This document shows positions 1 through 57,559 of a DNA stretch of 64,000 bases, one piece after another. Source of the stretch: Candidatus Eiseniibacteriota bacterium (lineage in GTDB: Bacteria; Eisenbacteria; RBG-16-71-46; CAIMUX01); assembly GCA_903844735.1 (NCBI GenBank), contig CAIMUX010000087.1, positions 4,738-68,737 on the forward strand. Direction: 5' to 3'. Below the pieces are notes generated by a model, which saw nothing but the letters and a program-made list of their open reading frames with translations, did not search any database and was not told the DNA's origin. How positions within the stretch are numbered: the first letter of the stretch is position 1; each line of letters starts with the position of its first letter. A program made the translations under genes and the position numbers.

Positions 1-1693
1 TCGCGCGGCACCCGAACAACGATCCCGCCTTCCCCAATCGCACCCGGAGAGATGTCGCCGAGTTCCGTGCGTTGATCGCTGATCTGAAGACTCGCATCGT
101 CCAGCGAGATCCCCAAGATGACCCCGAAGGCCGGACCGGGCCCGGCGTTCTTGATGAAGACCTGGAGATCGATGACTTCCCCATTCTGAATGACTCCGTC
201 GCCGTTTCCGCTGGCCCGCCCTCCGCGGTCCTCCACCCGGACCTCTGCCACTTCGAGACGCGGACGTGTCAGACTCCGGACCTCCAAGTCCACAGGCACG
301 GCCATGGATGAGAACCCTCGGCTCTCCTCCATTGAGAAAACGAATCTGGCGTGCCCGTTGGCGACATCGGGATCTACCGCCACGGGTATGACCCACTTGG
401 CGCTTCGTCCGGGCTGGATGTTACCTGTTGTCACGGACGCCGCCACGTCCAGGGCGTCGTGGTCTTTGTTGATGCGAAGGACGGTGCCGTACGCGCAGCC
501 GGGGCCGGCGTTTGAGGCACGCACGGTGAAGGTCGCCTCCGTTTCGGCCCCATCGAGGGCATTGTTTGGAGTCGCGCAGGCACTATCACTGAATGCGATG
601 CTCAGCGTCAAATTGCACGGTTCATCCCGTCCCTGGGCAATTTCGGGGAGGGCGTCGACCAGCAGTGCTGCAGCGCCATTTTCGCCGCCCACTGCCATCA
701 GCTTCCCGTCGTTGCTAAATGATACGGACAGGAGCGCTCCACAACGTGATCTGAATACGTCGGTAGTGAAACGATCCTGATCGATTCCATAGAGAGTCAC
801 CGATCCCTTGCTCCCGCCGGCCAGAAGAAACCTTCCATCCGGGGTCAGATCGATGGAGGAAATCGACTGATCCGCGACCGGCTCGCGGGAGAGGAGGACG
901 CTTCCATCATGAAGGCCGACGGACACGATGCGGCCATCGTTTCCTCCCGAGAAGACCGACTCTCCAGTGACCTTCAATCCCGCGACAGCGCCCTTGTGGG
1001 CCGACCTGCGCCAGATTCTCTCTTCCGTTCCCGGTTTCCAGGCCGCTATCTCGCCGTCGGCCGACCCAGCGAGGAGGAGTTGACCGGAGGGATCGTAGGC
1101 AAGGGCCGTCGTGCTGCGCGAGGACGCAGAGATTGTGCGCACCAGATTGCAGGTCAGCGCATTGTCAGATGCCACAAGGAGATCATATTGCTGAACAATG
1201 CCGTTGCCGAAACCTATGGCGAGTTGTCTTCCGTCGGGACGGGCGGCAAAGGACGTCACTATGGTTTGCCCAGGAGTGAGTCGGCCGCATTGCCGATATG
1301 AACCCACATCCCAGAACCGGACCTCGCCGTCCCAGCTACCAGACACGAAAACGGTGCTGTTCGGCAACATGAGCAGGGTCCGCACATAGTCCGAATGCCC
1401 GAGCAGGCGGCCCAGGATCTCGCCCGACGGGACGGCGTGCACCGTGACATGGCTCTCGCTCGCGCAGGCCACGCGCTTCTCATCGAGTGCGAGTACAGCC
1501 CATACCGATTCGGCCGACTCCTGCAGCCAGGGCTTGCCTTGCCCCGAGGCTCCGTCCATGAGCTGCGAACTCGTGGACGCGGGTAGAAGCGACAACAGAG
1601 CGGCAAGGATTCCGACAACAGCGAGGGGCCGCGAGAGCCCACGCAAGAGCGTGGCCGGTATCGTCCTCGCAACTCGTCTCAGGCGGAACATGT
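1..1693 (-). CDS. WD40-repeat (beta-propeller) protein with N-terminal signal/anchor and C-terminal CARDB-like domains; partial, its C-terminus lies beyond the window start
   Basis: Reverse-complement translation from ATG at 1693 gives MFRLRRVARTIPATLLRGLSRPLAVVGILAALL..., followed by several WD40-like units (GSWDGEVRFWDV, SADGEIAAWK, GGNDGRIVSV), then GNGDGVIQNGEVIDL CARDB-like repeats. No stop before position 1; the six-frame track misses it because the ORF is open-ended. Confidence 0.6.
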
Positions 1694-1944
1694 TGGCCTC
1701 ACAGGTCCGACGTCGGGACCCCTTCCCACCAGACAGTGAATCCAATACCGAATGTCATGCCGCCAAGGGCGCGATAGTCATGCTCCAACCACTTCTGACG
1801 AACGTGGCTGAGGGCCGGCTTACGGCCGCGCCCGTCCAGAAAGAATCGATCTTCCAGCTCTCGAGGTCGCGGCGACCTCGAGTTTCCCTCTCGATCTCCG
1901 CGAGTGTTCCCTGCGCGGTTGTCAGATCCATGGATCCTCCTGGC

Positions 1945-4917
1945 TTACCAGGAGATCAGCGTTTCCCCGGCGTCCCGGAATAGGACGTAGGGAGTCTGCA
2001 CCACATTCCGGTTCTCGATGGCACGCTTCGGGACATTCGTCTGCAGGTAGTCCTGCATCTCCCAGCTTGTGATGCGTCGGTCGTGATTCGCATCTGCCCG
2101 TCCCTGGAGGGCCTCCAGAAGGCATCTCGTGAACACCCCGTGTCTACTCCCCTTGTCCCAGGCCGCGACCTGTCCTTCGTCGGTTGCCAGGAAGAGGTTG
2201 ATTCCCATGCGGACGGTGCCCGGTCGTGTGTCGATCATCTTCACCATGCTGACGTCGCTCACCAAGGGCTCCGGCGGACCGTCGTTGCTGAACACTTGGT
2301 TCGCGAAGCAGGCGTCCAGGAAGACCCAGACGCTTGCGGCCCCCACGTCTGCGACCATGTCGTAGAGTTCCTTCGTGGCGAGCGCGCTATCTTCAATGAA
2401 GTCGAGGTCGGCCTCAAACGGAAGAATGTACGACTGGTGATCGTTGAATCCGACCGATCCATGTCCCGAGAAGAAAAAGATACAGCGGGACTTCCCCGGG
2501 ACGATCAACTGCTTGACCTTGCGTAGCGCAATCCGAATCTGGTCCATGGTTGCCTCCGCATCGTTGAGACAGATGATGCGAGTCGCTGCAATCCCCATGG
2601 TCTGTTCGCAGTAGCGCTTGAAAGCCTTTGCATCCCGGACGGCGTACTCGACGGGGACGCGGGAGTTGCGATACGTCCGCACGCCGATCACGATCGCCAC
2701 GTCATCGGGTCCATAGACGGATCGGATGGTCGGATTCGGCAGATCGACATCGTCGATGACCGGCATCGGAGCGGCCTCGCCACGACTGTCGACGGAGTAC
2801 GCACCGATCCTCTCGAAGAACCCTTCCGGAATCTCAGCCCCCGGCTCGACTACCCCCGTCGTCGCCCGGGCCCCGACAACAGATATCGGCTGGTTCAAGC
2901 GAAGCGAGGAAAAATTCTGCTGCGTGACGTTCAACCTGTACTCAATCGACTCGGTGGCCAGAGCGCTGGGGATGGGGTCCAGTGTGAAGGCCTGGTTCCA
3001 CTGACTCTCGGGTTCGAGATTGCCGACGGTGTAGTCCTTCTTGAACCTGTAGACTTGGGGAGTCCCGTTCGACGTGGTGTAGGGCCTCTCCGCCTCCAGC
3101 GTCACGACCACGTCGCGTGCCATCAACGTCCCCTGGTTCGTGAGGATCGCCATGAGCTTGCCAGGACGGCCGAGTTCGAGGGGTCTCCCGTTGCTCGTGA
3201 GGAGGGAGATCGCCAGCTCCGGGCGGCGGATCTCGGCGGGAATGTACTCCTCCTTCCTCGCGCGCGGGTTCCCTTCGGAGGAGAGAGAGAAGACCAGCGT
3301 GGCTTCGGACTTGTCGTAGGACGGTGAAAGGGCGACCGTAATGCTCGTGATCGGACTGGTGGCGCCCTCGGGGATTCGCCCGAGAGCGATCTGGGCGGGG
3401 TCGATCTCGATGCCCGGGTCCGCCGTGATCGTGCATGCGCACTCGATGGCGTCCAACCCTCCATCATTGCTGACGGCAAACGCGATGTGTCCGGTCTCGC
3501 CGTTTCGGATCTTTTCCGGCCTTTCTTTGATGATCAGGGCAAGCTGCTCCGCGGCGGTTTGGATGTCAATCGGCCCCCTCGTTGCCTCGACCCCACCGAG
3601 GCGCTCCTCGTGGACGGCGAGGCTCCATTCCAGGCGGGTGCCCTGGATCCGCCGGTCGAGCGCAATTCCGTAACGTAGCATGACTTTGTCGTTGGCGATG
3701 AGCTGGGCGATGGTTGGCGCCCGACCTGTGAGAGTCGCCCCGGCGGTGTCTAGTCGCAACTCCGGTAGAAGTCCGAACGCGGGACCCTTGCCGATGTTCG
3801 TCAGTGGGATGGTCAGCTCGATTGTTTCGCCGTTTTGGACAACGCCATCTCCGTTACCGTCCGCCAGGCCGCTACCCCCGTCACTGATCGTCGGTACCCC
3901 GAACTCCAGCTTTGGAGGAGCCGGGACCCGCACGGGCACGGTCAGCCTGAACGGAGGGCTGTTGTAACCGCGTCCCTCTTCGGCGATGAACTCGAGGTCA
4001 GCTTGGTCACCCAGGAGCGCCCTGGAGGCCTTAAGGGTGACGTTGATGGTCTCTTCTCCATCCTTCGGGATGATGCGGAACTCCTGGACCGGGGCCTCGA
4101 TCTTGATCTCTGGATTGCTGCATGTCCAACGGAGCCGTATGTCCGTGGCCGAACCAGGTCCGGCGTTGCGGATGCGAACGCCGATGACCGCTTCCTCGGC
4201 TGGCTCAAGCGCATTGTCCGGGAAGTACGGGCCGTCGCCCTGCAACTCGGCCAGGATGTCCATCGCACACCCGCCGGGAGTCATCCCGCGGGAGGCGTCG
4301 GAGCAGAGAGCGACAGCCCGTTTCAGTGGTGCTTCATAATTTGCCTTCTGGAGCCTCGGGATCATGGACCCATTGATCGGCATCAGCCACGGAGCGGCGT
4401 CCTCAAACTCACAATTCACGATGGCTCCAACGATCCCGCTGGGAACAATGGTGACAATCGCCCATGGCCAATCGAAAAGGGCGCCCATCGTCATGAGAAC
4501 GGTGTACTTGTGGCCTTTCACCTCATCGACCGCGAGCAACTCGCCCGACGTGAGATTGACGGTGGTAATGCGGACCACTCGACCGGTTCCGAAGGCAGCA
4601 TGCTCGATGTGGATGAGAAATCTGGCGTGTCCAGACAGCGCGCGTATGGCGTCCTCAAGAATATCGTCGTCCTGAATGAACATGACGGTTCTGGGCACTG
4701 CGGCCTTCGTGATGACCTTCTTGAAATCGAAATACCACCCTTTCTGCTCCGGCTGATCCAGAGAGTCGCGGACGACGACGATGTCGTAGGGCGCTTTCGA
4801 CATGGAGCCGCGGACAAACTCGATCGACGAGTAGTTGAGGTCCTTGGTCATCTGCTTGCCACAACCCGAGAAGAGAACCAGTCCTAAAGCGAAGAATATC
4901 ACAACGTGCCGCTTCAC
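1945..4917 (-). CDS. Caspase-domain (peptidase C14, HetF/metacaspase-like) lipoprotein with central CARDB-like repeats
   Basis: 990 aa ORF with lipoprotein signal MKRHVVIFFALGLVLFSGCG. The C-terminal region carries the caspase His/Cys dyad context FFFSGHGS ... FLDACFA. The central part has GNGDGVVQNGETIELT CARDB-type repeats. Confidence 0.75.
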   Translation of the reverse strand: MKRHVVIFFALGLVLFSGCGKQMTKDLNYSSIEFVRGSMSKAPYDIVVVRDSLDQPEQKGWYFDFKKVITKAAVPRTVMFIQDDDILEDAIRALSGHARFLIHIEHAAFGTGRVVRITTVNLTSGELLAVDEVKGHKYTVLMTMGALFDWPWAIVTIVPSGIVGAIVNCEFEDAAPWLMPINGSMIPRLQKANYEAPLKRAVALCSDASRGMTPGGCAMDILAELQGDGPYFPDNALEPAEEAVIGVRIRNAGPGSATDIRLRWTCSNPEIKIEAPVQEFRIIPKDGEETINVTLKASRALLGDQADLEFIAEEGRGYNSPPFRLTVPVRVPAPPKLEFGVPTISDGGSGLADGNGDGVVQNGETIELTIPLTNIGKGPAFGLLPELRLDTAGATLTGRAPTIAQLIANDKVMLRYGIALDRRIQGTRLEWSLAVHEERLGGVEATRGPIDIQTAAEQLALIIKERPEKIRNGETGHIAFAVSNDGGLDAIECACTITADPGIEIDPAQIALGRIPEGATSPITSITVALSPSYDKSEATLVFSLSSEGNPRARKEEYIPAEIRRPELAISLLTSNGRPLELGRPGKLMAILTNQGTLMARDVVVTLEAERPYTTSNGTPQVYRFKKDYTVGNLEPESQWNQAFTLDPIPSALATESIEYRLNVTQQNFSSLRLNQPISVVGARATTGVVEPGAEIPEGFFERIGAYSVDSRGEAAPMPVIDDVDLPNPTIRSVYGPDDVAIVIGVRTYRNSRVPVEYAVRDAKAFKRYCEQTMGIAATRIICLNDAEATMDQIRIALRKVKQLIVPGKSRCIFFFSGHGSVGFNDHQSYILPFEADLDFIEDSALATKELYDMVADVGAASVWVFLDACFANQVFSNDGPPEPLVSDVSMVKMIDTRPGTVRMGINLFLATDEGQVAAWDKGSRHGVFTRCLLEALQGRADANHDRRITSWEMQDYLQTNVPKRAIENRNVVQTPYVLFRDAGETLISW

Positions 4918-5020
4918 CGCATCCCTCCAGTTTCGATCTCCCTGCCTCGATCGGAGACATAGAGTAGAAAACGGCCCGATGAGAGCAGCAGGAAGAGAAG
5001 TAGGGCGGCTGACGCAAGCC

Positions 5021-6226
5021 TCATTGATGATTTCCTGAAATGGCTCTCAGCCGCGCCAACACAAAGAGCGCCTCGGTGCCGGAGACATCTCCCGTGGGAT
5101 TGAATGCGCCCTTCAGGTCCCCTGACATGAGTCCGCGTGTGGTCACCACCTTGATGGCGTTCAGGGCGTAATGATCGCTCGGAACATCCCGGAACTCCGA
5201 TGCCGTTCCCACGAATCGGGTGGGGAGTCGGTCGTCATCGGCGATCCGTGTCAGAACCGACTCCAGGACCCTCGCGAAGTCCGCGCGCGAGATCGGCGCA
5301 AGGGGCAGGAAGTTTCCGTCCGGTGCCCTATCAAGCAGGCCGAACCCGAGCACCTTGTCGACATACAGCCGCGACCACCGACCCTCCAAGACGTCAGGAG
5401 GACGCGCCGCCGCGCCAGGGGTGATCGTCGCCGCCCCGCCGGGAGGGCGGAAGATCACCTGAGCGGATGGAGCGCTCCCGAATAGGTGGTCCAGGTCCAG
5501 TTCCTCAACCAGAAGGGCCGCCAGGTCCTCACGCGTGATGGCGGTCTTCGCGGCCACCTGGACGTATTCCGGAGGGGCACCCTTCGTTGCCGCTGCCTGC
5601 CGGGCCAGGCTGAGCAGCGCCTCCGTCGCCCTTTGATCGCCGGGGGCGAGTGCGAGAATGGCTCCGTACGAATCCCATGCATCCTGGGGAAGATTCAGCG
5701 CCTCCTGGACCTTCCCGATCCAATAGAGTCCATCGACGTTCTTGGGGTCCCGCTTGAGGGCCCCGGTCAGCGTCTTCTGCGCCTGCTCCGGTTTTCCCTC
5801 TGCGAGCTGCAGCCGGCCTTTGGCAATGATCGAGGCCGGATCGGAGCCGTCCAGCTTCAGTGCGCGGTCAATCGCCTTCTTGGCCGCGCGGAGGTCGCCC
5901 GACTCGATGCAAGCCAGACCAAGACCCCGGTGGCCGGGGGCGAACTGGTGATCGAGACCGACCGACCGTTCGAACTCGATCCGTGCAGCGGACGGGCGCC
6001 CGGCATCGAGTTCCGCCATTCCGCGAGAATAGGCGGTGGAAGGTGTGTCTAGAATCGACTCCGGGTGGACCATCACCTTCGGTGCGCAGCCGGCGAGCGG
6101 CAGCAGGACAAAGAAGGCAACAAGGCCTGCGAATCGCAGGGAACTGCATTTGAACCTGAGCACGGGATCTCTCCTTCTTTTGGGCGCCCATGCGAAGGCA
6201 AGGCGGTGTCCAGGGGCCCGGGTCAT
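5021..6226 (-). CDS. TPR-repeat lipoprotein with C-terminal SLH-like domain
   Basis: 401 aa with hydrophobic segment LVAFFVLLPLAGC and TPR-like repeats (LGLACIESGDLRAAKKAIDRALKLD ...). The C-terminus ADFARVLESVL...FRDVPSDHYALNAIKVVTTRGLMSG resembles S-layer homology. Its start overlaps the stop of the upstream gene (ATGA at 6223-6226). Confidence 0.55.
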   Translation of the reverse strand: MTRAPGHRLAFAWAPKRRRDPVLRFKCSSLRFAGLVAFFVLLPLAGCAPKVMVHPESILDTPSTAYSRGMAELDAGRPSAARIEFERSVGLDHQFAPGHRGLGLACIESGDLRAAKKAIDRALKLDGSDPASIIAKGRLQLAEGKPEQAQKTLTGALKRDPKNVDGLYWIGKVQEALNLPQDAWDSYGAILALAPGDQRATEALLSLARQAAATKGAPPEYVQVAAKTAITREDLAALLVEELDLDHLFGSAPSAQVIFRPPGGAATITPGAAARPPDVLEGRWSRLYVDKVLGFGLLDRAPDGNFLPLAPISRADFARVLESVLTRIADDDRLPTRFVGTASEFRDVPSDHYALNAIKVVTTRGLMSGDLKGAFNPTGDVSGTEALFVLARLRAISGNHQ

Positions 6227-6918
6227 GAGTAAATTGCCATCATTCTCTGCAAGTATATGCTGGCGAGGAGCTTCGCCAGTACGAGGGCAATGAGAACGAC
6301 AAAAACGACAGGCGTCTTGAGCTTCGAGAAGACCGTCTGAGCTATCCAGAGGAGAGTGAAGATCAAGTCAAGAGCCATCGCGATCGCTCCCAGGTTCGCG
6401 GCGTTCACATTGACGCCCATGGGCAGGACTACCGCGGTCTTCAAGTTTCGTGCGGCCCACTCAAGCTTCACGAGCGCGTCGCTATGGTCGCTGCTGGCCT
6501 CGTCGATGTGTCTGAGATGTTGAAAGGCTTTGGACGCGTCCCCCGTCTCCACATAGATGGAGCCCAGGTGGTAGTGCGCCTTCTGCACGTATGGGCTGGT
6601 CGGCAGGTACTCCGTGACCAGATCTTCCAACGGGCCGATCGCCGCCGTCTTGTTTCTCTGGAAGATGAGCCTGACCTCCCCCAGTTGCAGCAATGCATAC
6701 TGACGCAACTCCTCGTTTCCCGCTTCGCGAAGGGTGGCCTCCAGCCTTCCGGCGACCTCGTCGTATTTCCCCTCGCGAAGAAGGTCATCAACCGCGGAGC
6801 GTAGTGTGCTGAGATCCTCAACGCGGGACGGTGCGGGCACGATTCTGCTCGGTGCGGCCAGAAAGGGGGTCAGCATGAAAACAAGGAGAAACAACCCGTA
6901 GCGAGTGTGCCGGTTCAT
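6223..6918 (-). CDS. TPR-like secreted/membrane protein with C-terminal transmembrane helices
   Basis: 231 aa with signal MNRHTRYGLFLLVFMLTPFLAAPS, TPR-like helices and a hydrophobic C-terminal tail (LGAIAMALDLIFTLLWIAQTVF...VVFVVLIALVLAKLLASIYL). Translationally coupled to 5021-6226. Confidence 0.5.
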   Translation of the reverse strand: MNRHTRYGLFLLVFMLTPFLAAPSRIVPAPSRVEDLSTLRSAVDDLLREGKYDEVAGRLEATLREAGNEELRQYALLQLGEVRLIFQRNKTAAIGPLEDLVTEYLPTSPYVQKAHYHLGSIYVETGDASKAFQHLRHIDEASSDHSDALVKLEWAARNLKTAVVLPMGVNVNAANLGAIAMALDLIFTLLWIAQTVFSKLKTPVVFVVLIALVLAKLLASIYLQRMMAIYS

Positions 6919-6943: not shown

Positions 6944-8044
6944 CTACCGATACAACGGCATTCGGCCGTAGACCTTCCCGATATAGGCTTGCGTCTCAGA
7001 CGGCGTATGGGATTCCAGCAGCCGCAAAATGGAGCCGGGACTCACCCCCGCCAGATCCTCCAGGCCAAACCCCGCGCCGCGTAGGGCCCGCTCGACGTTC
7101 GCCGGGCCGCAGTTGTAACCCGCGATGACGAGATGGGTGTTCTTCTCGTCCTCCTGCGTGTTCCCGAAGTAGACGTCGCGAAGAAGCTTGAGATAGGTCG
7201 TTCCGACGAGCACGTTGTGTTCGGGACGGTACAGATCCTCCGCCGCCGGCTTGCCGCCAGGCAGATCGAGGAACCGGTAGGCATCCGCTCCCGCCATAGC
7301 GGGGACGACCTGCATCAGTCCGTAGGCAGGGACGGATGACCGCGCCAAAGGGTTGAACGCCGACTCCGTGTGGATGATCGCCATCACGAGGGCGGGAGAA
7401 AGGGCGTACCTCGAAGCGTGCCGCTGGACAATGGGGGCACAGATTTCCGCCCTATGACGCAGGTGCCCGTCCGCGAGGCGAATCGTGACGGCGCGGCGAA
7501 GCCTCTTCACGTGGTCCGCTCCGACGATCACCGTCGGTGGCTCGACCTTCGTGAGAAGGCTGTCACGAACATAGGTCCGCGCCTCGCCGCTCGAGAGATA
7601 CCGATCGCCCTTCCACTTGATCTGATTGGCCAACGGCACCTCACCCGAGGGGTTGTTGTTCGAAAGGACCCGGGTGAGTTCTGTCGCCAGGCGATCCTCC
7701 AGGATCTGGCGATCGGAGGACGGCTCGACCAGAACCTCCAGACGAACCTCGCCGTTCTCGAAGTCCACCTGAGAGTGACCATTCAAGCCGGCGCTGTAGC
7801 TCGACCAAACCTTCTGGGTGGACTCGTCGAAGGCCCCCCACACACCCTCGACCTCGCGGGCAAAGGCTTGAAACGCGGCGTCGGTTTCGGCGAGGTAACC
7901 GCGATAGTCCCCTTCCATTCTGGCGCTGAGGGAGTCGAATGCAGTGTCGATCTCCCGAAACGGATCGGGAGGAGGCTGAGCGCCCGCGGACGAAAAGCCA
8001 ACTACGCACGCAAGCGTGGCCAGCAGCAATCGAGACGTGGCCAT
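6944..8044 (-). CDS. Membrane-bound lytic murein transglycosylase (MltC-like; SLT domain)
   Basis: SLT catalytic motif ALVMAIIHTESAFNPLARSSVPAYGLMQVVP. The true start is probably the internal Met giving signal peptide MATSRLLLATLACVVGFSSAGAQ (ATG ending at 8044), rather than the 8179 ORF start, which overlaps the upstream gene. Confidence 0.75.
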   Translation of the reverse strand: MATSRLLLATLACVVGFSSAGAQPPPDPFREIDTAFDSLSARMEGDYRGYLAETDAAFQAFAREVEGVWGAFDESTQKVWSSYSAGLNGHSQVDFENGEVRLEVLVEPSSDRQILEDRLATELTRVLSNNNPSGEVPLANQIKWKGDRYLSSGEARTYVRDSLLTKVEPPTVIVGADHVKRLRRAVTIRLADGHLRHRAEICAPIVQRHASRYALSPALVMAIIHTESAFNPLARSSVPAYGLMQVVPAMAGADAYRFLDLPGGKPAAEDLYRPEHNVLVGTTYLKLLRDVYFGNTQEDEKNTHLVIAGYNCGPANVERALRGAGFGLEDLAGVSPGSILRLLESHTPSETQAYIGKVYGRMPLYR

Positions 8045-8052
8045 CGGCCGCG

Positions 8053-9102
8053 TCAGTCCACGACGAAAACGACGCGGCATTCCTGAAGAAAGGGCCGGAT
8101 CGTGTCCGCAGCCATTACCCGTGCCGCGTCGACCGGCTTCAACAGGACGGTGCCGCTGGCCGAACCCATCGTTCCGCACGCTTTGACGAGGAGGGGCTTC
8201 GAGCCGACGCGATCGGCAGACACCGTCTCGGGGCTCTTGGCCCAGCCAGCAATGCCGATCTGCGATACGTACTTCGGATCGACGGCGAGAACCCCGTACA
8301 CCTGCCTGCCCTCCTGGCCCTCAATGAAGACCTGCGGCGAGGCCACAGGGCGCATGAAATAGCCCCTCGTATCTACAACCAGACCGGTGTGGGTCGCCAA
8401 CTCCGGCTCGGTCGCCTTCAGAGCCTGGACGGCCCCCTCAGGCGGTCTCTCCGCCTGCTTGATCCCGATCTTCTTGTACTCATCCCGCAAGGTCGGCAGC
8501 ATGCGCGCCAGGATCCCCTCGTTGGGGTGCTCCTTGTTATAGAGCAGCAGCGCAATCGAGACCTCAGAGATCGCGATCGAGCTGTTTCTCTTGGCTGGAT
8601 GTTCCTCCTGGCGGAACGTCTCGCTCAGAATGGGACCAGTGCGCACAAGCTCAGGAGGCACGCTGATACTGATCTTCCATTTGTTCATGATGGCGTTCTT
8701 CTCGTCAAAGCTCCCGCCAGCTACCTGGCGGAGCCCTCGCTTCTCGATCTCATCTTCCCGACCGACGATGACCCCGTTCAGGAACTCCCGGGCCTTGACG
8801 TAGGCATAGTCACGGGCCTCCATCTTCAGGCCTTCCTCATCCATGAGGTCTTCGGACCTTGCGATTCCCTTGAACACCATCATCCCGTTTGACCAGTTGA
8901 CGAGCACGTCGGACGAGGATCCCGATTCCTCGAACGTGTAATGGGCCTTGGTCAGGTCGGTCTCATCCGTCTTGTAGGAGTCTGCCGATCCCCAGATGGC
9001 TCGCACGGCTTCGTCCCCGACCTGGGCCGCAGCGGACGCGGCCACGCAGCAAAGGACAATCAAGAGTCGCAGAAGAATCGCCACGATACCCTCCTTCATC
9101 AC
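8053..9102 (-). CDS. Secreted hypothetical protein
   Basis: 349 aa ORF with signal MMKEGIVAILLRLLIVLCCVAASAAAQ. Same strand and tightly spaced with neighbours (4-nt overlap with 9099-10037). No domain recognised by eye. Confidence 0.5.
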   Translation of the reverse strand: MMKEGIVAILLRLLIVLCCVAASAAAQVGDEAVRAIWGSADSYKTDETDLTKAHYTFEESGSSSDVLVNWSNGMMVFKGIARSEDLMDEEGLKMEARDYAYVKAREFLNGVIVGREDEIEKRGLRQVAGGSFDEKNAIMNKWKISISVPPELVRTGPILSETFRQEEHPAKRNSSIAISEVSIALLLYNKEHPNEGILARMLPTLRDEYKKIGIKQAERPPEGAVQALKATEPELATHTGLVVDTRGYFMRPVASPQVFIEGQEGRQVYGVLAVDPKYVSQIGIAGWAKSPETVSADRVGSKPLLVKACGTMGSASGTVLLKPVDAARVMAADTIRPFLQECRVVFVVD

Positions 9103-13743: not shown

Positions 13744-15201
13744 ATGCGACATAACAGCAAACGGCGACACCTGGTGCTATTCCTGGCCGGCCTCACGGTC
13801 GTGCCGGTCACGATCACTCTGGGGTGTGGCCTTCTGAAGCGCGGCGGGAAACAGCCCTCCGTCACCACGGAAGCCGCGGCCCGGCGTGACATCGCCGTGA
13901 CGATCGAGGCGACCGGCGTCGTCGAACCGGTGGACCTTGTGGAGGTGAAGTCCAAGGCATCGGGGCAGATTCTGCGGATGCCGGTGGAAGTCGGCTCCAG
14001 GGTGCGCGTCGGCGACCTGCTCGCGCAGATCGACACGGTGGACGTGCAGAACCAGTATGAACAGGCCTTCGCCGCCGAACGGGCTGCTCGGGCGAAGGTG
14101 GATGTCTCAGCCGCGCAGTTGAAACGGGCCGAGGAGTTGTTCGCCCAGCAGGTGATCACGGTGGTGGAGCACGAGAGTTCGACCCTGGACTACGCCAACG
14201 CGGAGTCGCAGCTCGTGAAAGCCCGCACCGATTTCGACACGGCGCGGCAGCGCCGGGCGGACGCCACCGTGCGGGCGCCCGTTGCGGGGACAGTCCTCCA
14301 ACAGCTCGTCTCGGCCGGACAGGTCATCGTTTCGGCCACCTCCTCGGTGAGCGGTGGCACGGCCCTGTTGCGCATGGCCGACTTGGCGCGGATCCGCCTG
14401 CGCGCTCTCGTCAGCGAGACCGACATCGGAAGCGTCAAGCCGGGCCAGGTCGCCACCGTCTCGATGGAAGCGTTCCCCCAGAGGTCGTTCCAAGGCACGG
14501 TCGAGAAGGTCGAGCCGCAGGCCGTGGTGCAGCAATCGGTCACCATGTTTCCGGTGCTCATCTCCATCACGAACGAGGATGGACTCCTCCTGCCCGGCAT
14601 GAACGGCGAGGTTTCGATGCAGGTCGATCATCGCGACAACGTTCTCGCCGTTCCTCTCGATGCGGTGCGCACGGTGCGCGAACTGCCTTCCGTCGCGGCG
14701 GCCCTCGGCATGAACGCCGACTCGGTGCAGGCGCAGTTGACGCGGCGTGTCGGAAGTCGCCGGATTCGGCCGCCTGGAACACCGGGAGATGCGGACTCGA
14801 CCCGCCGGCATGGCCCCGAAGGGTGGGGCGGCCGGAGTCGCGGCGCGGGCATGAACTCTCCGCCCAACGGTGGCCCCCCCACGGGTGCCGGCGGGACAGT
14901 GTCCGGGAACGGATCCCGCGGTGCTTCCGTTGAGGGCGCGAGCCGCGCTCAAGCGATCCTGATCAAGACGGCAAAGGGAATCGAGCCGCGGCTGGTCCGG
15001 CTCGGGCTCAGCGACTTTGATTATGCGGAGGTTCTGGGCGGCCTCGACGAAGGAGACCAGGTGGTGCTCCTGGGAGTCGTCGAGCAACAGACCAAGCGAA
15101 CGGATGAACAGAGCCAGATCCGGCAGCGCTTGAGCGGCGGTACGCCCGGCGCGCTGCCGGGCTCCGGCGGCGGCGGCCGGCCCTCCGGAGGAGGGCACTG
15201 A
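13744..15201 (+). CDS. Efflux membrane-fusion (periplasmic adaptor, HlyD/MacA family) protein with Gly-rich C-terminal tail
   Basis: GGAGGA RBS then ATG at 13744 (MRHNSKRRHLVLFLAGLTVVPVTI...), followed by a biotinyl/lipoyl-like and beta-barrel region (VTIEATGVVEPVDLVEVKSKASGQILRMPVEVGSRVRVGDLLAQID). The long six-frame ORF from 13249 is rejected because it overlaps the TolC-like gene. Confidence 0.75.
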   Translation: MRHNSKRRHLVLFLAGLTVVPVTITLGCGLLKRGGKQPSVTTEAAARRDIAVTIEATGVVEPVDLVEVKSKASGQILRMPVEVGSRVRVGDLLAQIDTVDVQNQYEQAFAAERAARAKVDVSAAQLKRAEELFAQQVITVVEHESSTLDYANAESQLVKARTDFDTARQRRADATVRAPVAGTVLQQLVSAGQVIVSATSSVSGGTALLRMADLARIRLRALVSETDIGSVKPGQVATVSMEAFPQRSFQGTVEKVEPQAVVQQSVTMFPVLISITNEDGLLLPGMNGEVSMQVDHRDNVLAVPLDAVRTVRELPSVAAALGMNADSVQAQLTRRVGSRRIRPPGTPGDADSTRRHGPEGWGGRSRGAGMNSPPNGGPPTGAGGTVSGNGSRGASVEGASRAQAILIKTAKGIEPRLVRLGLSDFDYAEVLGGLDEGDQVVLLGVVEQQTKRTDEQSQIRQRLSGGTPGALPGSGGGGRPSGGGH

Positions 15202-31559: not shown

Positions 31560-33545
31560 TCATGGCAGGCGAACCGTGGCCAACTCCCGATCCCCCCGGC
31601 ACGCTGCGCCACCCCACGCGCTGACCTCGCGAAAGTCCCCTGAGGTCCCGCGCGCCCGCCGGTGCTCTATGAGCCGATGAAGCCGGATGCTCCCCTGCTT
31701 GCCCCGACAGCTCCGATCGTAGAGCCCGATGCTGTTCTCGACGTGGACGGAGTCGGGAAGGTCATCGATCAGCCAGCCCTCGGGCAGGACGACATCGGCT
31801 TCGGTCTCCATGCGGGCGGGTGCGCCGAGGAGAGTCTCCCGCGGTGTGGCATCCGGCAGGCAGGTCGGGCTTTCCCAGGTGAGGAAGTCCGGCTGGAGCA
31901 ACAGCAGGTTTCCGACGCGTTGTCCGGGCAGGGGGGCCTCGAACCGGAACCGCCAGGAGATCGAGTCGGCGACTTCCTCCAGGCCGGAGATGGCGAGGTC
32001 GCTGATACGGGCGCCGGGCAGGGACCGCGCGAGTTTCTCCCGGAAGCGGTCTGGCCGCCGCGCGGGTTCGATCCCGTTCAGCCACTCGCGCCAGGCCCAG
32101 GCGGTCGCGCCCGAGAGGAAGCTGGATACCTCGCCGCGCGCGTTCGCGGCGTCGAGTCGCAGCGTGCCCCGGTGCCGGACCGTGTTCTCCGCCGGGCGGT
32201 CTTCGGGAAGCGGCACCAGGTTGGCTACCGCGTCCTTTCCAATCACGAGCGCCCATGCCCCGTCCAGAGCGGTCGGAAGGCGGCCGAACGGGACCGACTT
32301 TGCGGTCGGGTCGAAGTAGAGAATCGAGCCGTCCGGGCGGGCGAGTGCCGTGATGCAGTGATCGAAGAACGGGGACGGTATCTCCCGTCGCACGAAGCCG
32401 CGGCCGCCGGCGCTGGTCAGCACCGGCCAGGCCTGGAACCCCGCGGAGCGGAACAGCGCAACGCAGAGGTGAGCCATGTCCTTGCAGTCGCCGTAGCGCG
32501 CGCGGCGGGTCTCCCCGACGGGGTGGGGTCGGATCTCGCCGTCCTTCAAGTAGACCTGGACGTACCCGACGCTACTACGAACCCAGGTTCCGAGCCGGGC
32601 CGCTCGTTCGTCGGCAGGCACATCGGCCGACGCCAGCTCGTGCACCAGGGCAGCGAATCCGGCCGTGTCGGCCAGCGCCTCTCGGTCGAGCGCTGCGTAC
32701 CAGGAAGCGACGGCGGGCCAGGAATCCAACGCGGGCGCGGGAGTCTCGCCTGGCTCCCGATAGCGCACGAAGAAGGCCGGCGCAGCCTCGGCCGCGGGCG
32801 GAGCGAACGCCGCCTTGTCCTGTTCTGCCGCAATCGGACCCCGCGCCCAGGACTGCCAACCATCTACCCCGGGTGTCGCCGGGGCGTCCGTGAGATCCGA
32901 CATGGCCGACTCGGCCCATGCCGCCTGGCTCGCCCAGCCCGCTGGCAGATGCAGGCGGTAGGTCCATCGAGTCACGGGAAGATCCCCGCGGCCCACCCGA
33001 ATGTCCGTTCGCAGGCCCGGGAAGCGGGTCTCGACCTCTACCAGGAACCCGAAGATGTCGCCGGGAGAGGGGTCCGGGATCTGCACGATGGCGTCGCGGC
33101 AGTCGGAGTAGAGCGCGGAGTTGAGCAGGGTGGTTCGCGTGATCGTGTCGACTTCGCGGGCGACCTTGATGGCGGCGATCTGGCCGCTGGAGGTCATTCC
33201 GCCCGCAGCCGTGCCGCCGTGCCCGACCCATCCGTGCATCGATTCAACGTGTACCCGCGAGTTCTCGGAGAAACGGAAGTAGGCATGTTCCGCGGCGCTG
33301 CCGCGGCGCAAGTGGTAGACGATCCGAATTTCCTCGCGGGATCGACCGTCCGCGTCCACCTCGACCCGGTAGTCCCGGGAGAGCTCCACGAGGTCGGCCT
33401 TGGGGAACGCCGCCTCGCCTTCCGCGATTCCGACGGCGTAAAACCAGTCCGGCAGGTCGCCGGCCTGGGCTGGAACGGCGAAGACGCCTACCGCCAGTGT
33501 GAGGCACGCGTCGCGAAACAGGCGCGCGATCCAAGGACGCCTCAT
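31560..33545 (-). CDS. Secreted DUF3857/transglutaminase-like domain protein (catalytic Cys present)
   Basis: Internal Met gives signal MRRPWIARLFRDACLTLAVGVFAVPAQA. Transglutaminase-like core RYGDCKDMAHLCVALFRSAGFQAWPV with downstream His/Asp context (FFDHCITAL). Paralog of 33677-35737. Confidence 0.6.
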   Translation of the reverse strand: MRRPWIARLFRDACLTLAVGVFAVPAQAGDLPDWFYAVGIAEGEAAFPKADLVELSRDYRVEVDADGRSREEIRIVYHLRRGSAAEHAYFRFSENSRVHVESMHGWVGHGGTAAGGMTSSGQIAAIKVAREVDTITRTTLLNSALYSDCRDAIVQIPDPSPGDIFGFLVEVETRFPGLRTDIRVGRGDLPVTRWTYRLHLPAGWASQAAWAESAMSDLTDAPATPGVDGWQSWARGPIAAEQDKAAFAPPAAEAAPAFFVRYREPGETPAPALDSWPAVASWYAALDREALADTAGFAALVHELASADVPADERAARLGTWVRSSVGYVQVYLKDGEIRPHPVGETRRARYGDCKDMAHLCVALFRSAGFQAWPVLTSAGGRGFVRREIPSPFFDHCITALARPDGSILYFDPTAKSVPFGRLPTALDGAWALVIGKDAVANLVPLPEDRPAENTVRHRGTLRLDAANARGEVSSFLSGATAWAWREWLNGIEPARRPDRFREKLARSLPGARISDLAISGLEEVADSISWRFRFEAPLPGQRVGNLLLLQPDFLTWESPTCLPDATPRETLLGAPARMETEADVVLPEGWLIDDLPDSVHVENSIGLYDRSCRGKQGSIRLHRLIEHRRARGTSGDFREVSAWGGAACRGDRELATVRLP

Positions 33546-33676
33546 CTCGGCGCACGGCATCCCCACTTGCCGAATCCCCGGGTGCGGGTCTTCTGCGCAC
33601 CGCACCCCTGTCGACCTAGCCTCCGCGGGCCCTATCCGCGTGGGGTCGACTCCCGTGCGCCTGATCCCCGCGCGCC

Positions 33677-35737
33677 TCACGGCCCGACCTTCGCCGGCGC
33701 CAGGACCAGCGGCTTGCCGTCGATGTCGCGCACCTCCTGGAACAGCCGCCGCAGCGTGTCGGCCCCCGCCGAGAGGAAGATGTTGTACAAGAGGTCGAGC
33801 TCCCGCTCCCGGACGATCGTCTTCCCGGCGCCGGAACCGGTGCAGCGGAACCGGAAGAACTCCGTCGACAGCGAGTCGGCCGACGACGACGCCAGCGCGT
33901 AGCCGTCGGGGACCGCCAGCTCGACGCGCGAGCGGGTCATTCTCGGGTACTGGAAGTGGATCTGGGATTCCCGCGGCTGGTCGGGAAGGGAGTAATCGTC
34001 CGCTCGAAACGAACCGAGGTTGACGATGGTCCGGCTTCCTGCCGATTGCACCTGGCCGCCCACGCGCAGGCTGCAGGCGTAGACGACGCCGGTGCTGTCT
34101 GCGCCGGCCGATTCGTCCCAGACGCGGAAGGAGGGGCCGATGCCGCCCAGCCGCGCCCTCAGGTAGTCGGCGGCCCCCTGTCCCTGCTGCCGGGTCACCT
34201 CGCGGCGCAGATCGGGGTCGCTTTCACATCGCCAGGTAGCGTGGAGTTGCCCCGAGAGATGGCCCTGTGGCTCCACGCGCAGCGTTGTCACCAGGTCGAC
34301 CCGGTTGTCGCAAGCCTCGGCCATGGGAACGAGTGCGGTCAGGGGGAAACGGACGGCGATCTTCTGGTTGCTCGATCGCTCCAGGATCGCAGTCCCGTCC
34401 TGGGCCATCCAGGGCAACGTCCGGATGGTGCTGCCCTGGAACGAGGGGAATATCCAGCGGATCTTGTTCCCGGAGTCGGCGACCGCCGTGCCGCACAGCG
34501 TCAGTTGGGAGGGATTCTCCCACTGTTTGATAAAGATCCCGTCCTCGCGACTGGGCGCGTGGAACACCGTCGCGGCGTAGCCGAGGCGGCGGAGCATTCC
34601 GGTGTAGAGGGAGGCCAGGCGGTCGTCCGAGCCGCGCCCGGCTTCGAGGACCTTCCTGGCGCTGTCGTAGTTCGGCAGGTCCTCCGGGAGTTCCGCCTCC
34701 GGAAGGTCGCGCAGGTTGCGGACGGTGCGGTGCAGGAGCGCGAGGCAATCCTCGATATCGCGGTCCAGGTCCCGGGGCCGGCCGATGATCTCCTTCATCC
34801 GCGCCTCCAGGCCGCGGTCGTCACGCATGAAGTTGTCGGTCTCCTTGCCCCAATCATCGGCCACCCGCTGCCAGAACGGCGCCAGCGAGTCCTTGCGGGG
34901 GAAGCCGTACCATCCGACGAAGTAGGTCGCAATCTCGCCCTCCGCGGCCAGGTACGGCTCGTCGGGCAGGGCCGAGAGGTTGTACATCGTGATCTGCAGG
35001 TGGTCAGGCGGGGCGTTTTCGGGCAGGGCCTTCGCCTTGACCCCCGTCGCCGGCGGATTGGCGAGCAGGTAGTGCGGCTGGTAGATCAAGTCCCGCAGCA
35101 GTAGCGGGTCGCCCACGATCGCCTCGATCACCGGATACCACCAGGTCAGCTCCGCGCGAACGGTGTAGTGCCGCTGCCGGAACTGAATGCGGGGGATCCC
35201 GCCCCACGCGCGCTCGACGGTGTACCGCCACTCCAGGATGTCGCCGGGGTCAACCGAGGGGAAGGCGAGCGTCTCGGCCTTGAGGACATCCCCGGCCCGC
35301 GAGAGAACCTTCTTCTCCCGGATTTCCCGCTTTTCGACCTCGATGACCCGTCCGTCAGGCTTCATCACGCGCGCCGCCAGCTCCGCGATCCGGCCGGCGA
35401 CAGGCCCCCGGATCTCGATGGTTCGATACGCCTCGATCCCATCGGCATCGAAGACCCGGACCCGGTGGTAGTACGAGTACCGGACCTGTTTTCCCTCGAT
35501 CCCCGGTCGTTCGTCGATCTGCGTCCCATCGAAGATCCGCACGGCGTGCCGGATACCCAAGGCCTCGTTGGCCGGGGCGCTCCAGTCCGTGTCGGTCAAA
35601 GGCAGCCAATCGGAGTAATCGCCATCTCGGGCGAGCGATGCCCGCGGAGCGAGAATGAGCGATGCTGTAGCGACGAGAAGAACCAGGAACGCACGCGGAA
35701 GGAGAGCACGGCGGACGAGGGTCATGATCGCCTCCAT
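33677..35737 (-). CDS. Secreted DUF3857/transglutaminase-like paralog with Ser at the nucleophile position
   Basis: Signal MEAIMTLVRRALLPRAFLVLLVATASLILAPRASLA. The homologous core reads RGSDDRLASLYTGMLRRLGYAATVFHAP, that is GSDD in place of GDCKD. Confidence 0.55.
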   Translation of the reverse strand: MEAIMTLVRRALLPRAFLVLLVATASLILAPRASLARDGDYSDWLPLTDTDWSAPANEALGIRHAVRIFDGTQIDERPGIEGKQVRYSYYHRVRVFDADGIEAYRTIEIRGPVAGRIAELAARVMKPDGRVIEVEKREIREKKVLSRAGDVLKAETLAFPSVDPGDILEWRYTVERAWGGIPRIQFRQRHYTVRAELTWWYPVIEAIVGDPLLLRDLIYQPHYLLANPPATGVKAKALPENAPPDHLQITMYNLSALPDEPYLAAEGEIATYFVGWYGFPRKDSLAPFWQRVADDWGKETDNFMRDDRGLEARMKEIIGRPRDLDRDIEDCLALLHRTVRNLRDLPEAELPEDLPNYDSARKVLEAGRGSDDRLASLYTGMLRRLGYAATVFHAPSREDGIFIKQWENPSQLTLCGTAVADSGNKIRWIFPSFQGSTIRTLPWMAQDGTAILERSSNQKIAVRFPLTALVPMAEACDNRVDLVTTLRVEPQGHLSGQLHATWRCESDPDLRREVTRQQGQGAADYLRARLGGIGPSFRVWDESAGADSTGVVYACSLRVGGQVQSAGSRTIVNLGSFRADDYSLPDQPRESQIHFQYPRMTRSRVELAVPDGYALASSSADSLSTEFFRFRCTGSGAGKTIVRERELDLLYNIFLSAGADTLRRLFQEVRDIDGKPLVLAPAKVGP

Positions 35738-43838: not shown

Positions 43839-45391
43839 GGGTTGGATCCCTTTCGTTGAACTGCGGGGTGCCTCGTCTGGCTGGCCAAGGTCTTCTGACC
43901 CTTCTTCGTCAGGCGGTACTTCTGCAGGCGGCTGTTGGGCTTGTCGGGGACCGTGAACTCGACACGTGCGCCTGTCAGGAGCGTCTTCAGCACAACCTTG
44001 AGCTGTCCAGAGACCCGTTCCTGCCCCAGTTGCTTCGAGATGACCGCGATGGGAAGGGCACCGTTGCTCAACAGAGCCAGAACGCGGTCTTCCAGTGACT
44101 GGTACTGGACTGGTACTGGACTGGTACTGGACTCCGGCTGTGTCTCCGGCCGTGACCCTACCCCCGACTCCACCTTTGCCCCTACCTCGGCACCAGCCGT
44201 CTCCCCCACGCGCACCCGGAAGGTCACCACCGCCGCCCCGGTGATCTCCTCGAACTTCGGCTGAGCGATCCCCGCGTCGCGGCACATTTCGACCACGCGG
44301 TTCGTCCCGCGCCCCCACTTCTCGATGAGGCCGGTTCGATGGAAGACGTCCGCAATCAGTGGGTTCCGCTGGACCGACAGGTGGTTCTGCGTCAGGGATC
44401 GGGGCGTGATGCCCTTGGGAAAACCTCCCGCGCTCCAGACCTCCACGCGATCGTCGAAGATCGCCAGCGAAACCGCGCCCCCCGCGATGGAGTAGTCGCG
44501 GTGGATGAGGGCGTTGACCAGGATCTCCCGCATGGCGTCCGGTGGGATGAGCAGCGTTTCCACCCGCCTCATTTGGCCCGGGACGATCCTCGCGGGCATC
44601 GGGAAATGGCGCTGGCAGAAGATCTCTGCTTCCTCCAAGAGCTTGAATGCCGGGCCGCGCACCTGGCGCTGGTCAAGGAACTCGGTCTTGGTCGTCCCCC
44701 GGAAGCGGGCCATGCGAAGCTCGCACTGCGGGTAGTCCGGCATGAACGTCTTGCCAAAGAGGACCACCGCGCCCTGGAGGATGCGGCCATCCGTGCGGAG
44801 ACCCAGCCGGGTCAGCACATCGGGAAGGCTCCGGCCCACGGGTCCGACCAGACGTCCGACCGAGCGGGCGATGTCCACGATGCGGAAGACCTCATCGCGG
44901 TCGATGCCCTTGATGGCCATCCCCTCGGCGGGCTCGTTTTCCCAGCGCCGCTTCGTGTGGGCGCGGGCGAGGAGGAGATTCTCGTACTTCTCCTGGGACA
45001 TCTTGCGCGTGGTGCTGGCTACCCGTTCATACGGGCGACCATCGAAGGTGAACGGAGCCGAATCCAGGGTCTTCGTGGTGCGAAGAATCAGAATCTCCCG
45101 TCCGTTCTCCAACGACAGCCGTTCTATCGGGAGATCCACCGGCGGCTCGAAGCGCTCAAACGCCTGCGCGATATCGCGGAGCGTCTGATCCGAGACCTGC
45201 TGCCCCTCGGGCTGACCGTCGGGACGGACCCCGAAGAGCACCATCCCGCCCGAGCCGTTCAGGAAGGCGCAGATGGTCTGCAAGCCCTCGCGCAGTTCGC
45301 CGGTCGAGCGCTTGATCTCCAGGTTCGGACCCTCTCCCGGTTTCAGGAGCCGGGCGAGGTCGTTCTCACTCGCGGGGATCTTCGGGATCAT
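43835..45391 (-). CDS. AlbA_2 (Schlafen-like 'divergent AAA') + HATPase_c_4 + C-terminal wHTH protein, paralog 1 (embedded in defence locus)
   Basis: 518 aa. N-terminal [44 protein letters not shown] (AlbA_2 family), then a GHKL-like region ([14 protein letters not shown]...GRGTNRV). The linker is encoded by a 12-nt x3 tandem repeat ([11 protein letters not shown]). The C-terminal HTH is diverged from paralog 2. Confidence 0.6.
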
Positions 45392-45486
45392 GCAGCCTCC
45401 ACTTCAGCCGCGGACGGTCACGACCACAGTGTCCGTGGTCTCAATGCATTCCACCGCGGCGATGCCCGGTCTGTCGATCCAGCTCG

Positions 45487-46971: not shown

Positions 46972-46989
46972 TTCAGCACGGGATCCTCC

Positions 46990-50723: not shown

Positions 50724-50797
50724 GACACAGCCTCCTATTCATCAACAAGCATCGGTCGGCATTCTCCGGACAAGCCCGTGGACCGGTGCTGCCCGCT

Positions 50798-57484: not shown

Positions 57485-57559
57485 TGGCTCCCCGGGCAGG
57501 ACTTGAACCTGCAACCCTGCGGTTAACAGCCGCATGCTCTACCATTGAGCTACCGAGGA
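57485..57559 (-). tRNA. tRNA-Asn (anticodon GUU), CCA encoded
   Basis: Reverse complement TCCTCGGTAGCTCAATGGTAGAGCATGCGGCTGTTAACCGCAGGGTTGCAGGTTCAAGTCCTGCCCGGGGAGCCA folds as a 75-nt cloverleaf with 7-bp acceptor stem, 4-bp D-stem, anticodon loop CTGTTAA and GTTCAAGT T-loop. Confidence 0.9.

Follow-up and report, generated by a model that had tools for sequence, protein, structure and literature searches.

At one end of a 64,000-nucleotide stretch of DNA from Candidatus Eiseniibacteriota bacterium (GenBank assembly GCA_903844735.1, contig CAIMUX010000087.1, positions 4,738 to 68,737; hereafter the window), a run of minus-strand genes encodes a caspase-like lipoprotein next to proteins with WD40 and tetratricopeptide repeat (TPR) features, which raises the question of what a caspase-type protease might do at a bacterial cell envelope. 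An original prediction, made from the DNA letters, described a HetF-like caspase with a separate WD40 partner and two TPR scaffolds. In our analysis the locus encodes two paralogous proteases of the orthocaspase/metacaspase type, caspase 1 (casp1) and caspase 2 (casp2), each predicted to be exported and to carry its catalytic domain at the end of a stalk of immunoglobulin-like (Ig-like) domains, and the most consistent genomic partner of the family is a protein with a DUF4384 domain. We tentatively read the locus as a module for regulated proteolysis in the envelope; the coordinates of all features are collected in Table 1.

Two caspases with Ig-like stalks

The first protease had been described as a lipoprotein with a caspase His/Cys pair and its protease domain at the C-terminus, which is confirmed by a Peptidase_C14 (PF00656) match at casp1 residues 740-942 (E 2e-14; 54.3 bits, cut-off 21.4) and by a lipobox-type N-terminus, ..LVLFSGC19, with Cys19 as the predicted lipid-anchor residue. 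The AlphaFold model of casp1 has a mean predicted local distance difference test score (pLDDT) of 76, with the Ig-like and caspase parts at 85-95; the caspase domain (residues 735-990) lies mostly above 90 and has the caspase-hemoglobinase fold, the linker at 685-721 is disordered, and the N-terminal ~200 residues are of low confidence. A Foldseek search with this model returned the caspase domain of MALT1 (3v4o_A, TMt 0.72, E 1e-9) together with tandem Ig-like proteins. The NCBIfam model NF047832 (EACC1-associated caspase) was tried and rejected, at 54 bits against a curated cut-off of 140.

The WD40 gene runs off the left edge of the window. It was completed from a 14.5-kb JGI contig (L001), which has 1 mismatch over the 10,042 bases that it has in common with the window's left end. 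The full product consists of a signal/anchor segment (residues 15-42), a WD40 propeller (~57-341), Ig-like domains and a C-terminal Peptidase_C14 domain (969-1207, E 1.3e-13; 51.6 bits against 21.4), the caspase domain and the remaining Ig-like domains lying past the window edge. WD40 (PF00400) scores 89 bits against 27, and matches to propeller families span 57-341 and comprise several repeats. Hence, what was taken earlier for a separate WD40 partner is a second caspase that has the propeller as its N-terminal module.

The caspase domains of casp1 and casp2 are 31% identical (E 3e-29) and their Ig-like tracts 26% identical over 473 aa (E 5e-28), with 39% identity over 162 aa (E 5e-22). Judged by these alignments, the two are paralogues that differ only in their N-terminal module. 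Casp2 is typical of the family, with a caspase domain 40-44% identical to those of ten homologues. The gene calls of NCBI/ENA, which label the cluster proteins "hypothetical protein", independently support the starts that give casp1 and casp2 their export signals, at 990 and 1218 aa.

Both proteins had been credited with the same CARDB-type repeats on account of the motif GNGDGV(V/I)QNGE(T/V)I(E/D)L. The motif and the Ig-like domains are indeed common to casp1 and casp2, but the motif is found once in each protein (at casp1 residue 354 and casp2 residue 495), where it picks out the second Ig-like domain in a tandem array of about four, and the CARDB (PF07705) scores are marginal: casp1 reaches 19.5 bits, below the cut-off of 22.7, and full-length casp2 reaches 24.1 bits without any single stretch passing alone. 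The caspase homologue of one related locus (L087) scores 27.7 bits. Across an alignment of 38 family members the motif has the consensus GLAxGNGNGIPENGETIEL, with E364, N374 and G376 (casp1 numbering) invariant. The Ig-like part of casp2 comprises a tract homologous to that of casp1 plus one further Ig-like domain. The tract also matches positions 565-767 of the model for the MXAN_5808 Prc-type serine peptidase (TIGR03900; E 4e-19 and 3e-13), which suggests an Ig-like stalk common to periplasmic proteases.

Catalytic site and protease class

Searching the PDB with the caspase domain as a single sequence gave nothing relevant, and family profiles were required to reach solved structures. These profiles match the metacaspases Yca1 (4f6o), Candida glabrata MCA1 (CgMCA1, 7qp0), AtMC9 (8a53) and AtMC4 (6w8s) and the paracaspase MALT1; identity to the solved metacaspases is low, with a profile E of about 1e-6. 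In the profile alignment the family motifs ysGhG, idaCfsG and rDA fall on YSGHG, FDSCHSG and NDA of the metacaspases. The dyad H819/C870 and the two S1-pocket aspartates D762 and D868 of casp1 are thus in place, since they align with the catalytic and pocket residues of metacaspases; D762 is the counterpart of the Asp in NDA, and D868 sits two residues before the catalytic Cys. All four are invariant in the 38-member alignment. The caspase assignment had been made to depend on the dyad falling on caspase catalytic positions, and the alignment places it on those of metacaspases. An hhalign comparison with a human caspase-3 sequence yielded only a weak alignment in the p10 region (probability 0.2%) and was set aside.

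In orthocaspases, cleavage takes place after basic residues and the pocket contains two aspartates (PMC6426788). As the dyad and both S1 aspartates are kept in casp1 and casp2, limited cleavage after Arg or Lys is predicted for both; by domain and conserved residues they are C14 proteins of the orthocaspase/metacaspase type, putatively active on such sites. The CHAT family (PF12770) gave no match at E <= 0.1 in either protein.

Family size and layout

An exhaustive HMMER search with a threshold of E <= 1e-30 recovered at least 323 cluster representatives. A scan in which each GTDB species was represented by one genome, with a 10-sequence caspase-domain alignment as the query, recovered at least 564 loci. 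The carriers belong to Bacteroidota, Gemmatimonadota, Marinimicrobia, WOR-3, Desulfobacterota, Calditrichia, Ignavibacteriota, Elusimicrobiota and other groups, and include the cultured Bacteroidota Flexithrix dorotheae, Rapidithrix thailandica and Flammeovirga. A word-indexed protein search with the caspase had returned only itself and one WD40-caspase.

In the members inspected, Ig-like repeats stand between a caspase at the C-terminus and a variable N-terminal module, which may be a lipoprotein domain, TPR or WD40. The caspase domain is at the C-terminus in 77 of the 93 caspase open reading frames (ORFs) of the 80 best loci, and an N-terminal hydrophobic or lipobox segment is present in 25/36 family homologues; a C-terminal protease behind an export signal is therefore the family norm. 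The envelope version with adhesion-type repeats, singled out earlier as unusual, turns out to be the ordinary form of a large family.

Surveys of orthocaspases name WD40 and DUF4384 among their accessory domains, and our literature search found no study of the exported Ig-stalk architecture. In PMC6426788 and PMC7475262 an exported Ig-stalk protein with a C-terminal protease is absent, the sole export feature being a Tat-like signal proposed for pseudo-orthocaspases. The exported, stalk-mounted, DUF4384-partnered form of C14 protease is thus widespread yet uncharacterised.

The upstream genes and their conservation

The four co-directional minus-strand genes of the original prediction are borne out, as is an ATGA overlap, of which there is one, joining the two TPR genes. 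The cluster itself is larger than the four genes at positions 1-6918 that had been assigned to it: three further co-directional genes, encoding a DUF4384 protein, a 349-aa protein (unk349) and an MltC-like enzyme with an SLT domain, lie upstream and extend it to window position 10037. The genes of this upstream block overlap or are at most 25 bp apart. Across the cluster, Peptidase_C14, WD40, TPR, SLH, SLT and DUF4384 are Pfam families matched above cut-off, and a hydropathy scan finds an N-terminal hydrophobic signal/anchor segment in six of the nine cluster products.

The DUF4384 protein matches PF14326 at 37.6 bits (cut-off 27) and has an N-terminal hydrophobic segment. Unk349 has no match in Pfam, NCBIfam or PADLOC, and its AlphaFold model is poor (pLDDT 58); a word-indexed protein search found three relatives, to which a profile added no more, and a first metagenome scan anchored on unk349 confirmed zero loci. 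An LPP20 domain was confirmed solely for neighbours in one locus (L076), and comparison of the N-terminal domains of the DUF4384 protein and unk349 is confounded by overlapping sequence sets. The SLT gene product matches PF01464 at 83 bits and covers most of the NCBIfam MltC model NF008670, at 121.8 bits against an equivalog cut-off of 375; by these scores it is MltC-like, not MltC.

The two TPR proteins had been described as a TPR/transmembrane (TPR/TM) protein and an S-layer-anchored TPR/SLH protein. The TPR/TM protein has three hydrophobic segments by hydropathy, one N-terminal (8-28) and two C-terminal (173-198 and 195-227), which agrees with the membrane part of that description; its middle part is TPR-like with matches under the Pfam cut-offs, and a homologue in L047 attains the TPR_6 cut-off. 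The TPR/SLH protein is well named, with TPR_2, TPR_14 and TPR_16 above cut-off and SLH (PF00395) at 49.4 bits against 20.8 in two stretches, the best at 345-386, behind the lipobox LPLAGC47. SLH domains bind cell-wall polymers; wall binding is a prediction for this protein, and to call it S-layer-anchored over-reads its SLH domain.

Two sets of related loci were compared. The caspase-anchored set is the best 80 of the at least 564 loci and is biased towards the presence of a caspase; the second set, anchored on the SLT gene, holds 80 metagenome loci with a median length of 6.7 kb, which are unbiased for the caspase but on short contigs. In the caspase-anchored set, iterated profile searches place a DUF4384 protein of ~280-330 aa close to the caspase and on its strand in 48/80 loci. 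There are 49 separate DUF4384 ORFs, of which 25 begin or end within 300 bp of the caspase gene, the majority being situated just downstream. On these counts the DUF4384 protein is the main, most consistent genomic partner of the caspase. MltC-like orthologues (E 1e-50 to 1e-58) lie beside the caspase in six loci (L054, L041, L057, L047, L010 and L051), and unk349 is adjacent in 3 of 80. Among the SLT-anchored loci, 8/80 have a caspase of this family, 7/80 DUF4384 and 6/80 unk349.

In L082, the closest relative found, with unk349 as the anchor, the genes for DUF4384, unk349, SLT, TPR/TM and TPR/SLH follow one another as they do in the window, and their products are 36-53% identical (unk349 53%, TPR/TM 48%, TPR/SLH 47%). 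In L087 the order is DUF4384, unk349, SLT, TPR/TM (42% identity), a PD40 propeller gene and an Ig-repeat C-terminal caspase; in L041 and L051 it is WD40-caspase, DUF4384, SLT and unk349; and the gemmatimonadotal L047 has TPR/SLH, unk349, SLT and TPR, close to which lie genes for a caspase, a WD40-caspase and a DUF4384 protein. Orthologues of unk349 (L082, L087, L041, L047, L051, L131 and L148) always stand beside the SLT and/or the DUF4384 gene; those of TPR/TM were found in L082, L087 and L047, and those of TPR/SLH in L082, L047, L131 and L148. Going by gene content and order, the two TPR genes belong foremost to a five-gene envelope block, with which caspases are associated time and again, though not in every case, in differing orders and in several lineages. 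The expectation that the genes would co-occur in relatives therefore holds, with the difference that the TPR genes are tied most tightly to the DUF4384, unk349 and SLT genes and are found in L082 free of a caspase.

Several other genes recur beside the caspases. Just past the left edge of the window, two tandem secreted proteins of ~420-470 aa without a Pfam match adjoin the WD40-Ig-caspase (L001:12463-13872 and 13808-14167, both on the minus strand). The same paired arrangement occurs at L054:4198-6744, in the locus whose WD40-caspase is the nearest relative (26% identity, E 6e-21), and the two proteins may also belong to the module. In Bacteroidota there is a four-gene order of caspase, ~240-aa lipoprotein, ~315-aa DUF4384-like protein and ~510-aa protein (L002, L007, L008, L011, L013, L018, L022-L024, L035 and L049), in which the ~510-aa protein has no Pfam match and ends in a motif resembling a transglutaminase/cysteine-protease core. 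Reverse transcriptases that look by their motifs like those of diversity-generating retroelements (DGRs) are present in the caspase loci L015, L016, L047 (8822-9877, minus strand) and L050, and putative FGE-sulfatase proteins (C-type-lectin fold) lie beside the caspase in 12/80 loci. These neighbours hint at hypervariable ligand-binding partners; elsewhere in the window no DGR, FGE-sulfatase or additional caspase copy was seen.

Relation to known systems

The caspases share with orthocaspases and type I metacaspases (C14B; the cyanobacterial enzymes, Yca1, AtMC4/AtMC9) the PF00656 domain, the YSGHG and D-x-C-x-S-G dyad motifs and two acidic S1 residues, and accessory WD40, TPR and DUF4384 domains are on record for orthocaspases (PMC6426788, PMC7475262). 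Unlike in those enzymes, the catalytic domain here is C-terminal, after an export signal, a variable N-terminal module and several Ig-like domains.

The gingipains (C25) and the clostripain-like C11 lipoproteins such as fragipain are extracytoplasmic caspase-fold proteases, often lipoproteins or bearing Ig-like domains, with Arg/Lys specificity. They nevertheless belong to peptidase families different from that of the window caspases, and their Ig-like domains follow the catalytic domain; PDB profile searches gave no sequence match to these exported clan CD proteases.

The comparison with HetF does not stand at the level of protein family. HetF of Anabaena is required for septal peptidoglycan remodelling and degrades a specific substrate, PatU3 (PMC8406250, PMC9457339), and a caspase-fold protease, TPR, a membrane anchor and, if our reading is right, a role in peptidoglycan remodelling are points of likeness. 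HetF, however, has an N-terminal CHAT domain followed by a transmembrane segment and TPR (PMC8406250), whereas the window caspases are PF00656 proteins without CHAT, their protease domain is C-terminal, and the TPR are in separate genes.

Craspase (type III-E CRISPR) likewise has a caspase-fold protease encoded with a partner, Csx30, the substrate of Csx29, and DUF4384 is one class of C-terminal domain in Csx30, often fused to proteases (bioRxiv 10.1101/2022.08.17.504292). Csx29 differs in being a cytoplasmic TPR-CHAT protein under RNA-guided control, while the proteases of this cluster are of type C14, are predicted to be exported and are encoded without CRISPR genes. In Escherichia coli, NlpI-Prc degrades MepS, MltD and MltG; the likeness there lies in a functional unit in which a lipoprotein with TPR and a protease of the periplasm act together with peptidoglycan hydrolases, among them the lytic transglycosylases MltD and MltG, and the Ig-like tract here matches the Prc-type family TIGR03900. 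Prc, on the other hand, is a serine protease unrelated to caspases, and the resemblance is one of logic only.

Proposed envelope proteolysis and the competing explanations

The reading that we prefer, with a confidence somewhat short of even, is that the locus encodes a module for proteolysis in the envelope, which has a DUF4384 protein as its partner and in this lineage is probably tied to peptidoglycan remodelling. Casp1 would be lipid-anchored and casp2 held by its signal/anchor helix, with the WD40 propeller, and the catalytic domain of each would stand at the end of an Ig-like stalk. The DUF4384 protein would be a substrate, adaptor or regulator of the protease; the first two roles are suggested by the analogy of Csx30, a protein cleaved by Csx29 that can end in a DUF4384 domain. 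The TPR proteins might tether or scaffold the proteases near peptidoglycan, and proteolysis might control cell-wall remodelling, as it does in NlpI-Prc. Claims about specific substrates merit less confidence than the reading as a whole.

Several observations weigh against this reading. A conserved Arg/Lys site was sought in a linker of the DUF4384 proteins, and none was seen. The export signals were assessed by eye and by hydropathy alone. In casp1, residues 140-171 form a ~30-residue hydrophobic stretch with central Pro/Gly, a type also present in a few homologues (P0006, P0007, P0016, P0027 and P0040) and on which AlphaFold is uninformative; it might form a hairpin in the membrane or cross it once, and in the latter case the stalk and protease would be cytoplasmic. 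Casp1 is also divergent, its caspase domain being at most 35.5% identical to any other, with DACFAN in place of the family's DACFSG and with HGVFTRCLL as a further departure, and this divergence could have impaired it. Finally, no caspase was found within 10 kb of the block in L082, nor in the available flank of the SLT-anchored loci L131 and L148; the caspases are therefore optional for the five-gene block.

This last point leads to an alternative that we rate as rather unlikely, namely that the caspase pair is a separate insertion next to unrelated neighbours, the adjacency of the TPR genes is meaningless and DUF4384 is the sole true partner. It would account for the intact block in L082, in which a phosphodiesterase gene takes the place of the caspases, for the 103-bp gap between the TPR/SLH gene and casp1 compared with overlaps or at most 25 bp inside the block, and for the PD40 propeller gene, rather than TPR/SLH, that precedes the L087 caspase. 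Nevertheless, caspases adjoin members of the block in the window and in nine other loci (L087, L047, L041, L051, L054, L057, L010, L095 and L097), and a promoter/terminator scan, otherwise uninformative, found no terminator-like site between the TPR/SLH gene and casp1.

We consider it unlikely that the caspases are surface or secreted degradative enzymes on lipid-anchored Ig stalks that digest external proteins for nutrition, predation or adhesion, with the envelope neighbours aiding only export or anchoring; in this they would be comparable to gingipains or other exported clan CD proteases. Ig-like domains of the CARDB/Big type are typical of extracellular proteins, the N-termini are of lipoprotein type, and the family is common in Bacteroidota, Marinimicrobia, Calditrichia, Ignavibacteriota and Gemmatimonadota, all of which would suit such a role. 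Metacaspase-type enzymes with an acidic S1 pocket, however, usually carry out limited, regulatory cleavage, and close pairing with one secreted DUF4384 protein suits a dedicated partner better than bulk digestion; moreover, no secretion-system genes were seen, nor a C-terminal sorting domain, since the caspase itself forms the C-terminus.

The original prediction had placed the locus among modules for programmed cell death or signalling while locating it in the envelope. The envelope location is supported, as a prediction, by the lipobox or hydrophobic N-termini of the six products noted above, whereas the cell-death or signalling assignment fares poorly on account of those same export segments, of the lack of an NTPase and of the PADLOC 2.0 results. 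PADLOC matched its generic 'caspase' model to casp1 and casp2 and gave two weak matches, HEAT-ARM_XIII in casp2 (39.8 bits, ~100 of 1972 positions) and PDC-M16B in the TPR/SLH protein; six other proteins were unmatched, and no set of components that defines a defence system was found in the cluster. Programmed lysis or defence, in which WD40 or DUF4384 senses danger and the caspases kill the cell by activating the lytic transglycosylase or destroying envelope proteins, could draw on the death or arrest caused by caspase-fold proteases elsewhere (such as Csx29-Csx30), on a repeatedly adjacent wall-cutting enzyme as plausible executioner, on DGR-type reverse transcriptases and FGE-sulfatase proteins near some family members and on a defence-like gene trio elsewhere in the window, but it is very unlikely given that PADLOC outcome, a cluster without an NTPase, nuclease, pore-former or toxin gene, a trio more than 36 kb away and a five-gene block that is probably housekeeping because it exists without caspases. 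Taken together, the evidence points to regulated envelope proteolysis and not to a cytoplasmic cell-death switch.

Feature table and other genes

Table 1. Features of the caspase locus (window positions unless a contig is named; casp1 residue numbers as given).
Feature	Position	Strand	Remarks
DUF4384 protein, secreted, 312 aa	9099..10037	-	First gene of the cluster
unk349, secreted 349-aa protein	8053..9102	-	No known family; start overlaps stop of DUF4384 gene
MltC-like lytic transglycosylase	6944..8179	-	Likely ATG start 8044; signal peptide MATSRLLLATLACVVGFSSAGA
TPR/TM, TPR-like membrane protein, 231 aa	6223..6918	-	
TPR/SLH lipoprotein, 401 aa	5021..6226	-	ATGA overlap with TPR/TM gene at 6223-6226
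casp1 (caspase 1), lipoprotein, 990 aa	1945..4917	-	
casp1 lipoprotein N-domain	4497-4917	-	Residues 1-171
casp1 Ig-like beta-sandwich domains, four	2863-4275	-	Residues ~215-685; AlphaFold
casp1 C-terminal Peptidase_C14 domain	1948-2715	-	Residues ~735-990; Pfam and AlphaFold
casp1 catalytic dyad	2308..2463	-	His819 at 2461-2463 (FFFSGHG); Cys870 at 2308-2310 (FLDACFAN)
casp1 S1-pocket Asp	2632-2634; 2314-2316	-	D762; D868
58-codon ORF	1755..1931	-	Directly after casp1
casp2 (caspase 2), N-terminal 563 of 1218 aa	1..1691	-	Runs off left window edge
casp2, full gene, 1218 aa	L001:8352-12008		
113-aa gene	L001:12086-12427	+	After casp2, outside the window

The small ORFs that come after the two caspase genes resemble one another: over ~125 nt, covering the ribosome-binding site and the first 32 codons, the 58-codon ORF and the 113-aa gene are ~80% identical in DNA, far above the flanking caspases (31% protein identity), and a GC-rich palindrome, CTCGAGGTCGCCGCGACCTCGAG, lies within this common stretch. 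Codon-position GC is gene-like in the 113-aa copy and atypical in the 58-codon copy, and by this comparison the shorter ORF is probably a decayed copy of the longer gene; the stretch itself may have arisen by duplication of a gene start or may be a conserved element of DNA or RNA. The small ORF has no family match and no homologue in the 80 related loci.

Farther along the window, large adjacent genes for a DUF499 protein (1128 aa), a DUF1156 protein (1004 aa) and a SNF2/ResIII helicase with NOV_C (1170 aa) at 40932-54783, on the minus strand, form a trio that looks like a restriction-modification or defence island, with a tRNA-Asn nearby at 57485-57559; a tRNA was the sole Rfam match in the window. 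At 31560-35737, also on the minus strand, a gene for a transglutaminase-like protein (706 aa) overlaps its neighbour, which codes for a DUF3857 protein (686 aa).

Implications

Most discussion of caspase homologues in bacteria treats them as enzymes of death or signalling in the cytoplasm, whereas the hundreds of loci described here point to a large envelope class. The class is testable through its fixed layout of anchor, Ig stalk and C-terminal protease, its DUF4384 partner and its wall-cutting neighbour in several phyla, and a direct test is possible since cultured carriers exist. If the DUF4384 protein or the MltC-like enzyme were cleaved, this would give DUF4384 a function and reveal a new control of peptidoglycan remodelling. 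As a conjecture to which we assign a low probability, the exported stalk metacaspase and DUF4384 might constitute a widespread, unrecognised periplasmic signalling or proteolysis system of diderms, in which cleavage of a dedicated DUF4384 partner controls peptidoglycan hydrolases and envelope remodelling; if true, it would be an extracytoplasmic counterpart of Craspase and of the caspase-gasdermin protease-substrate pairs.

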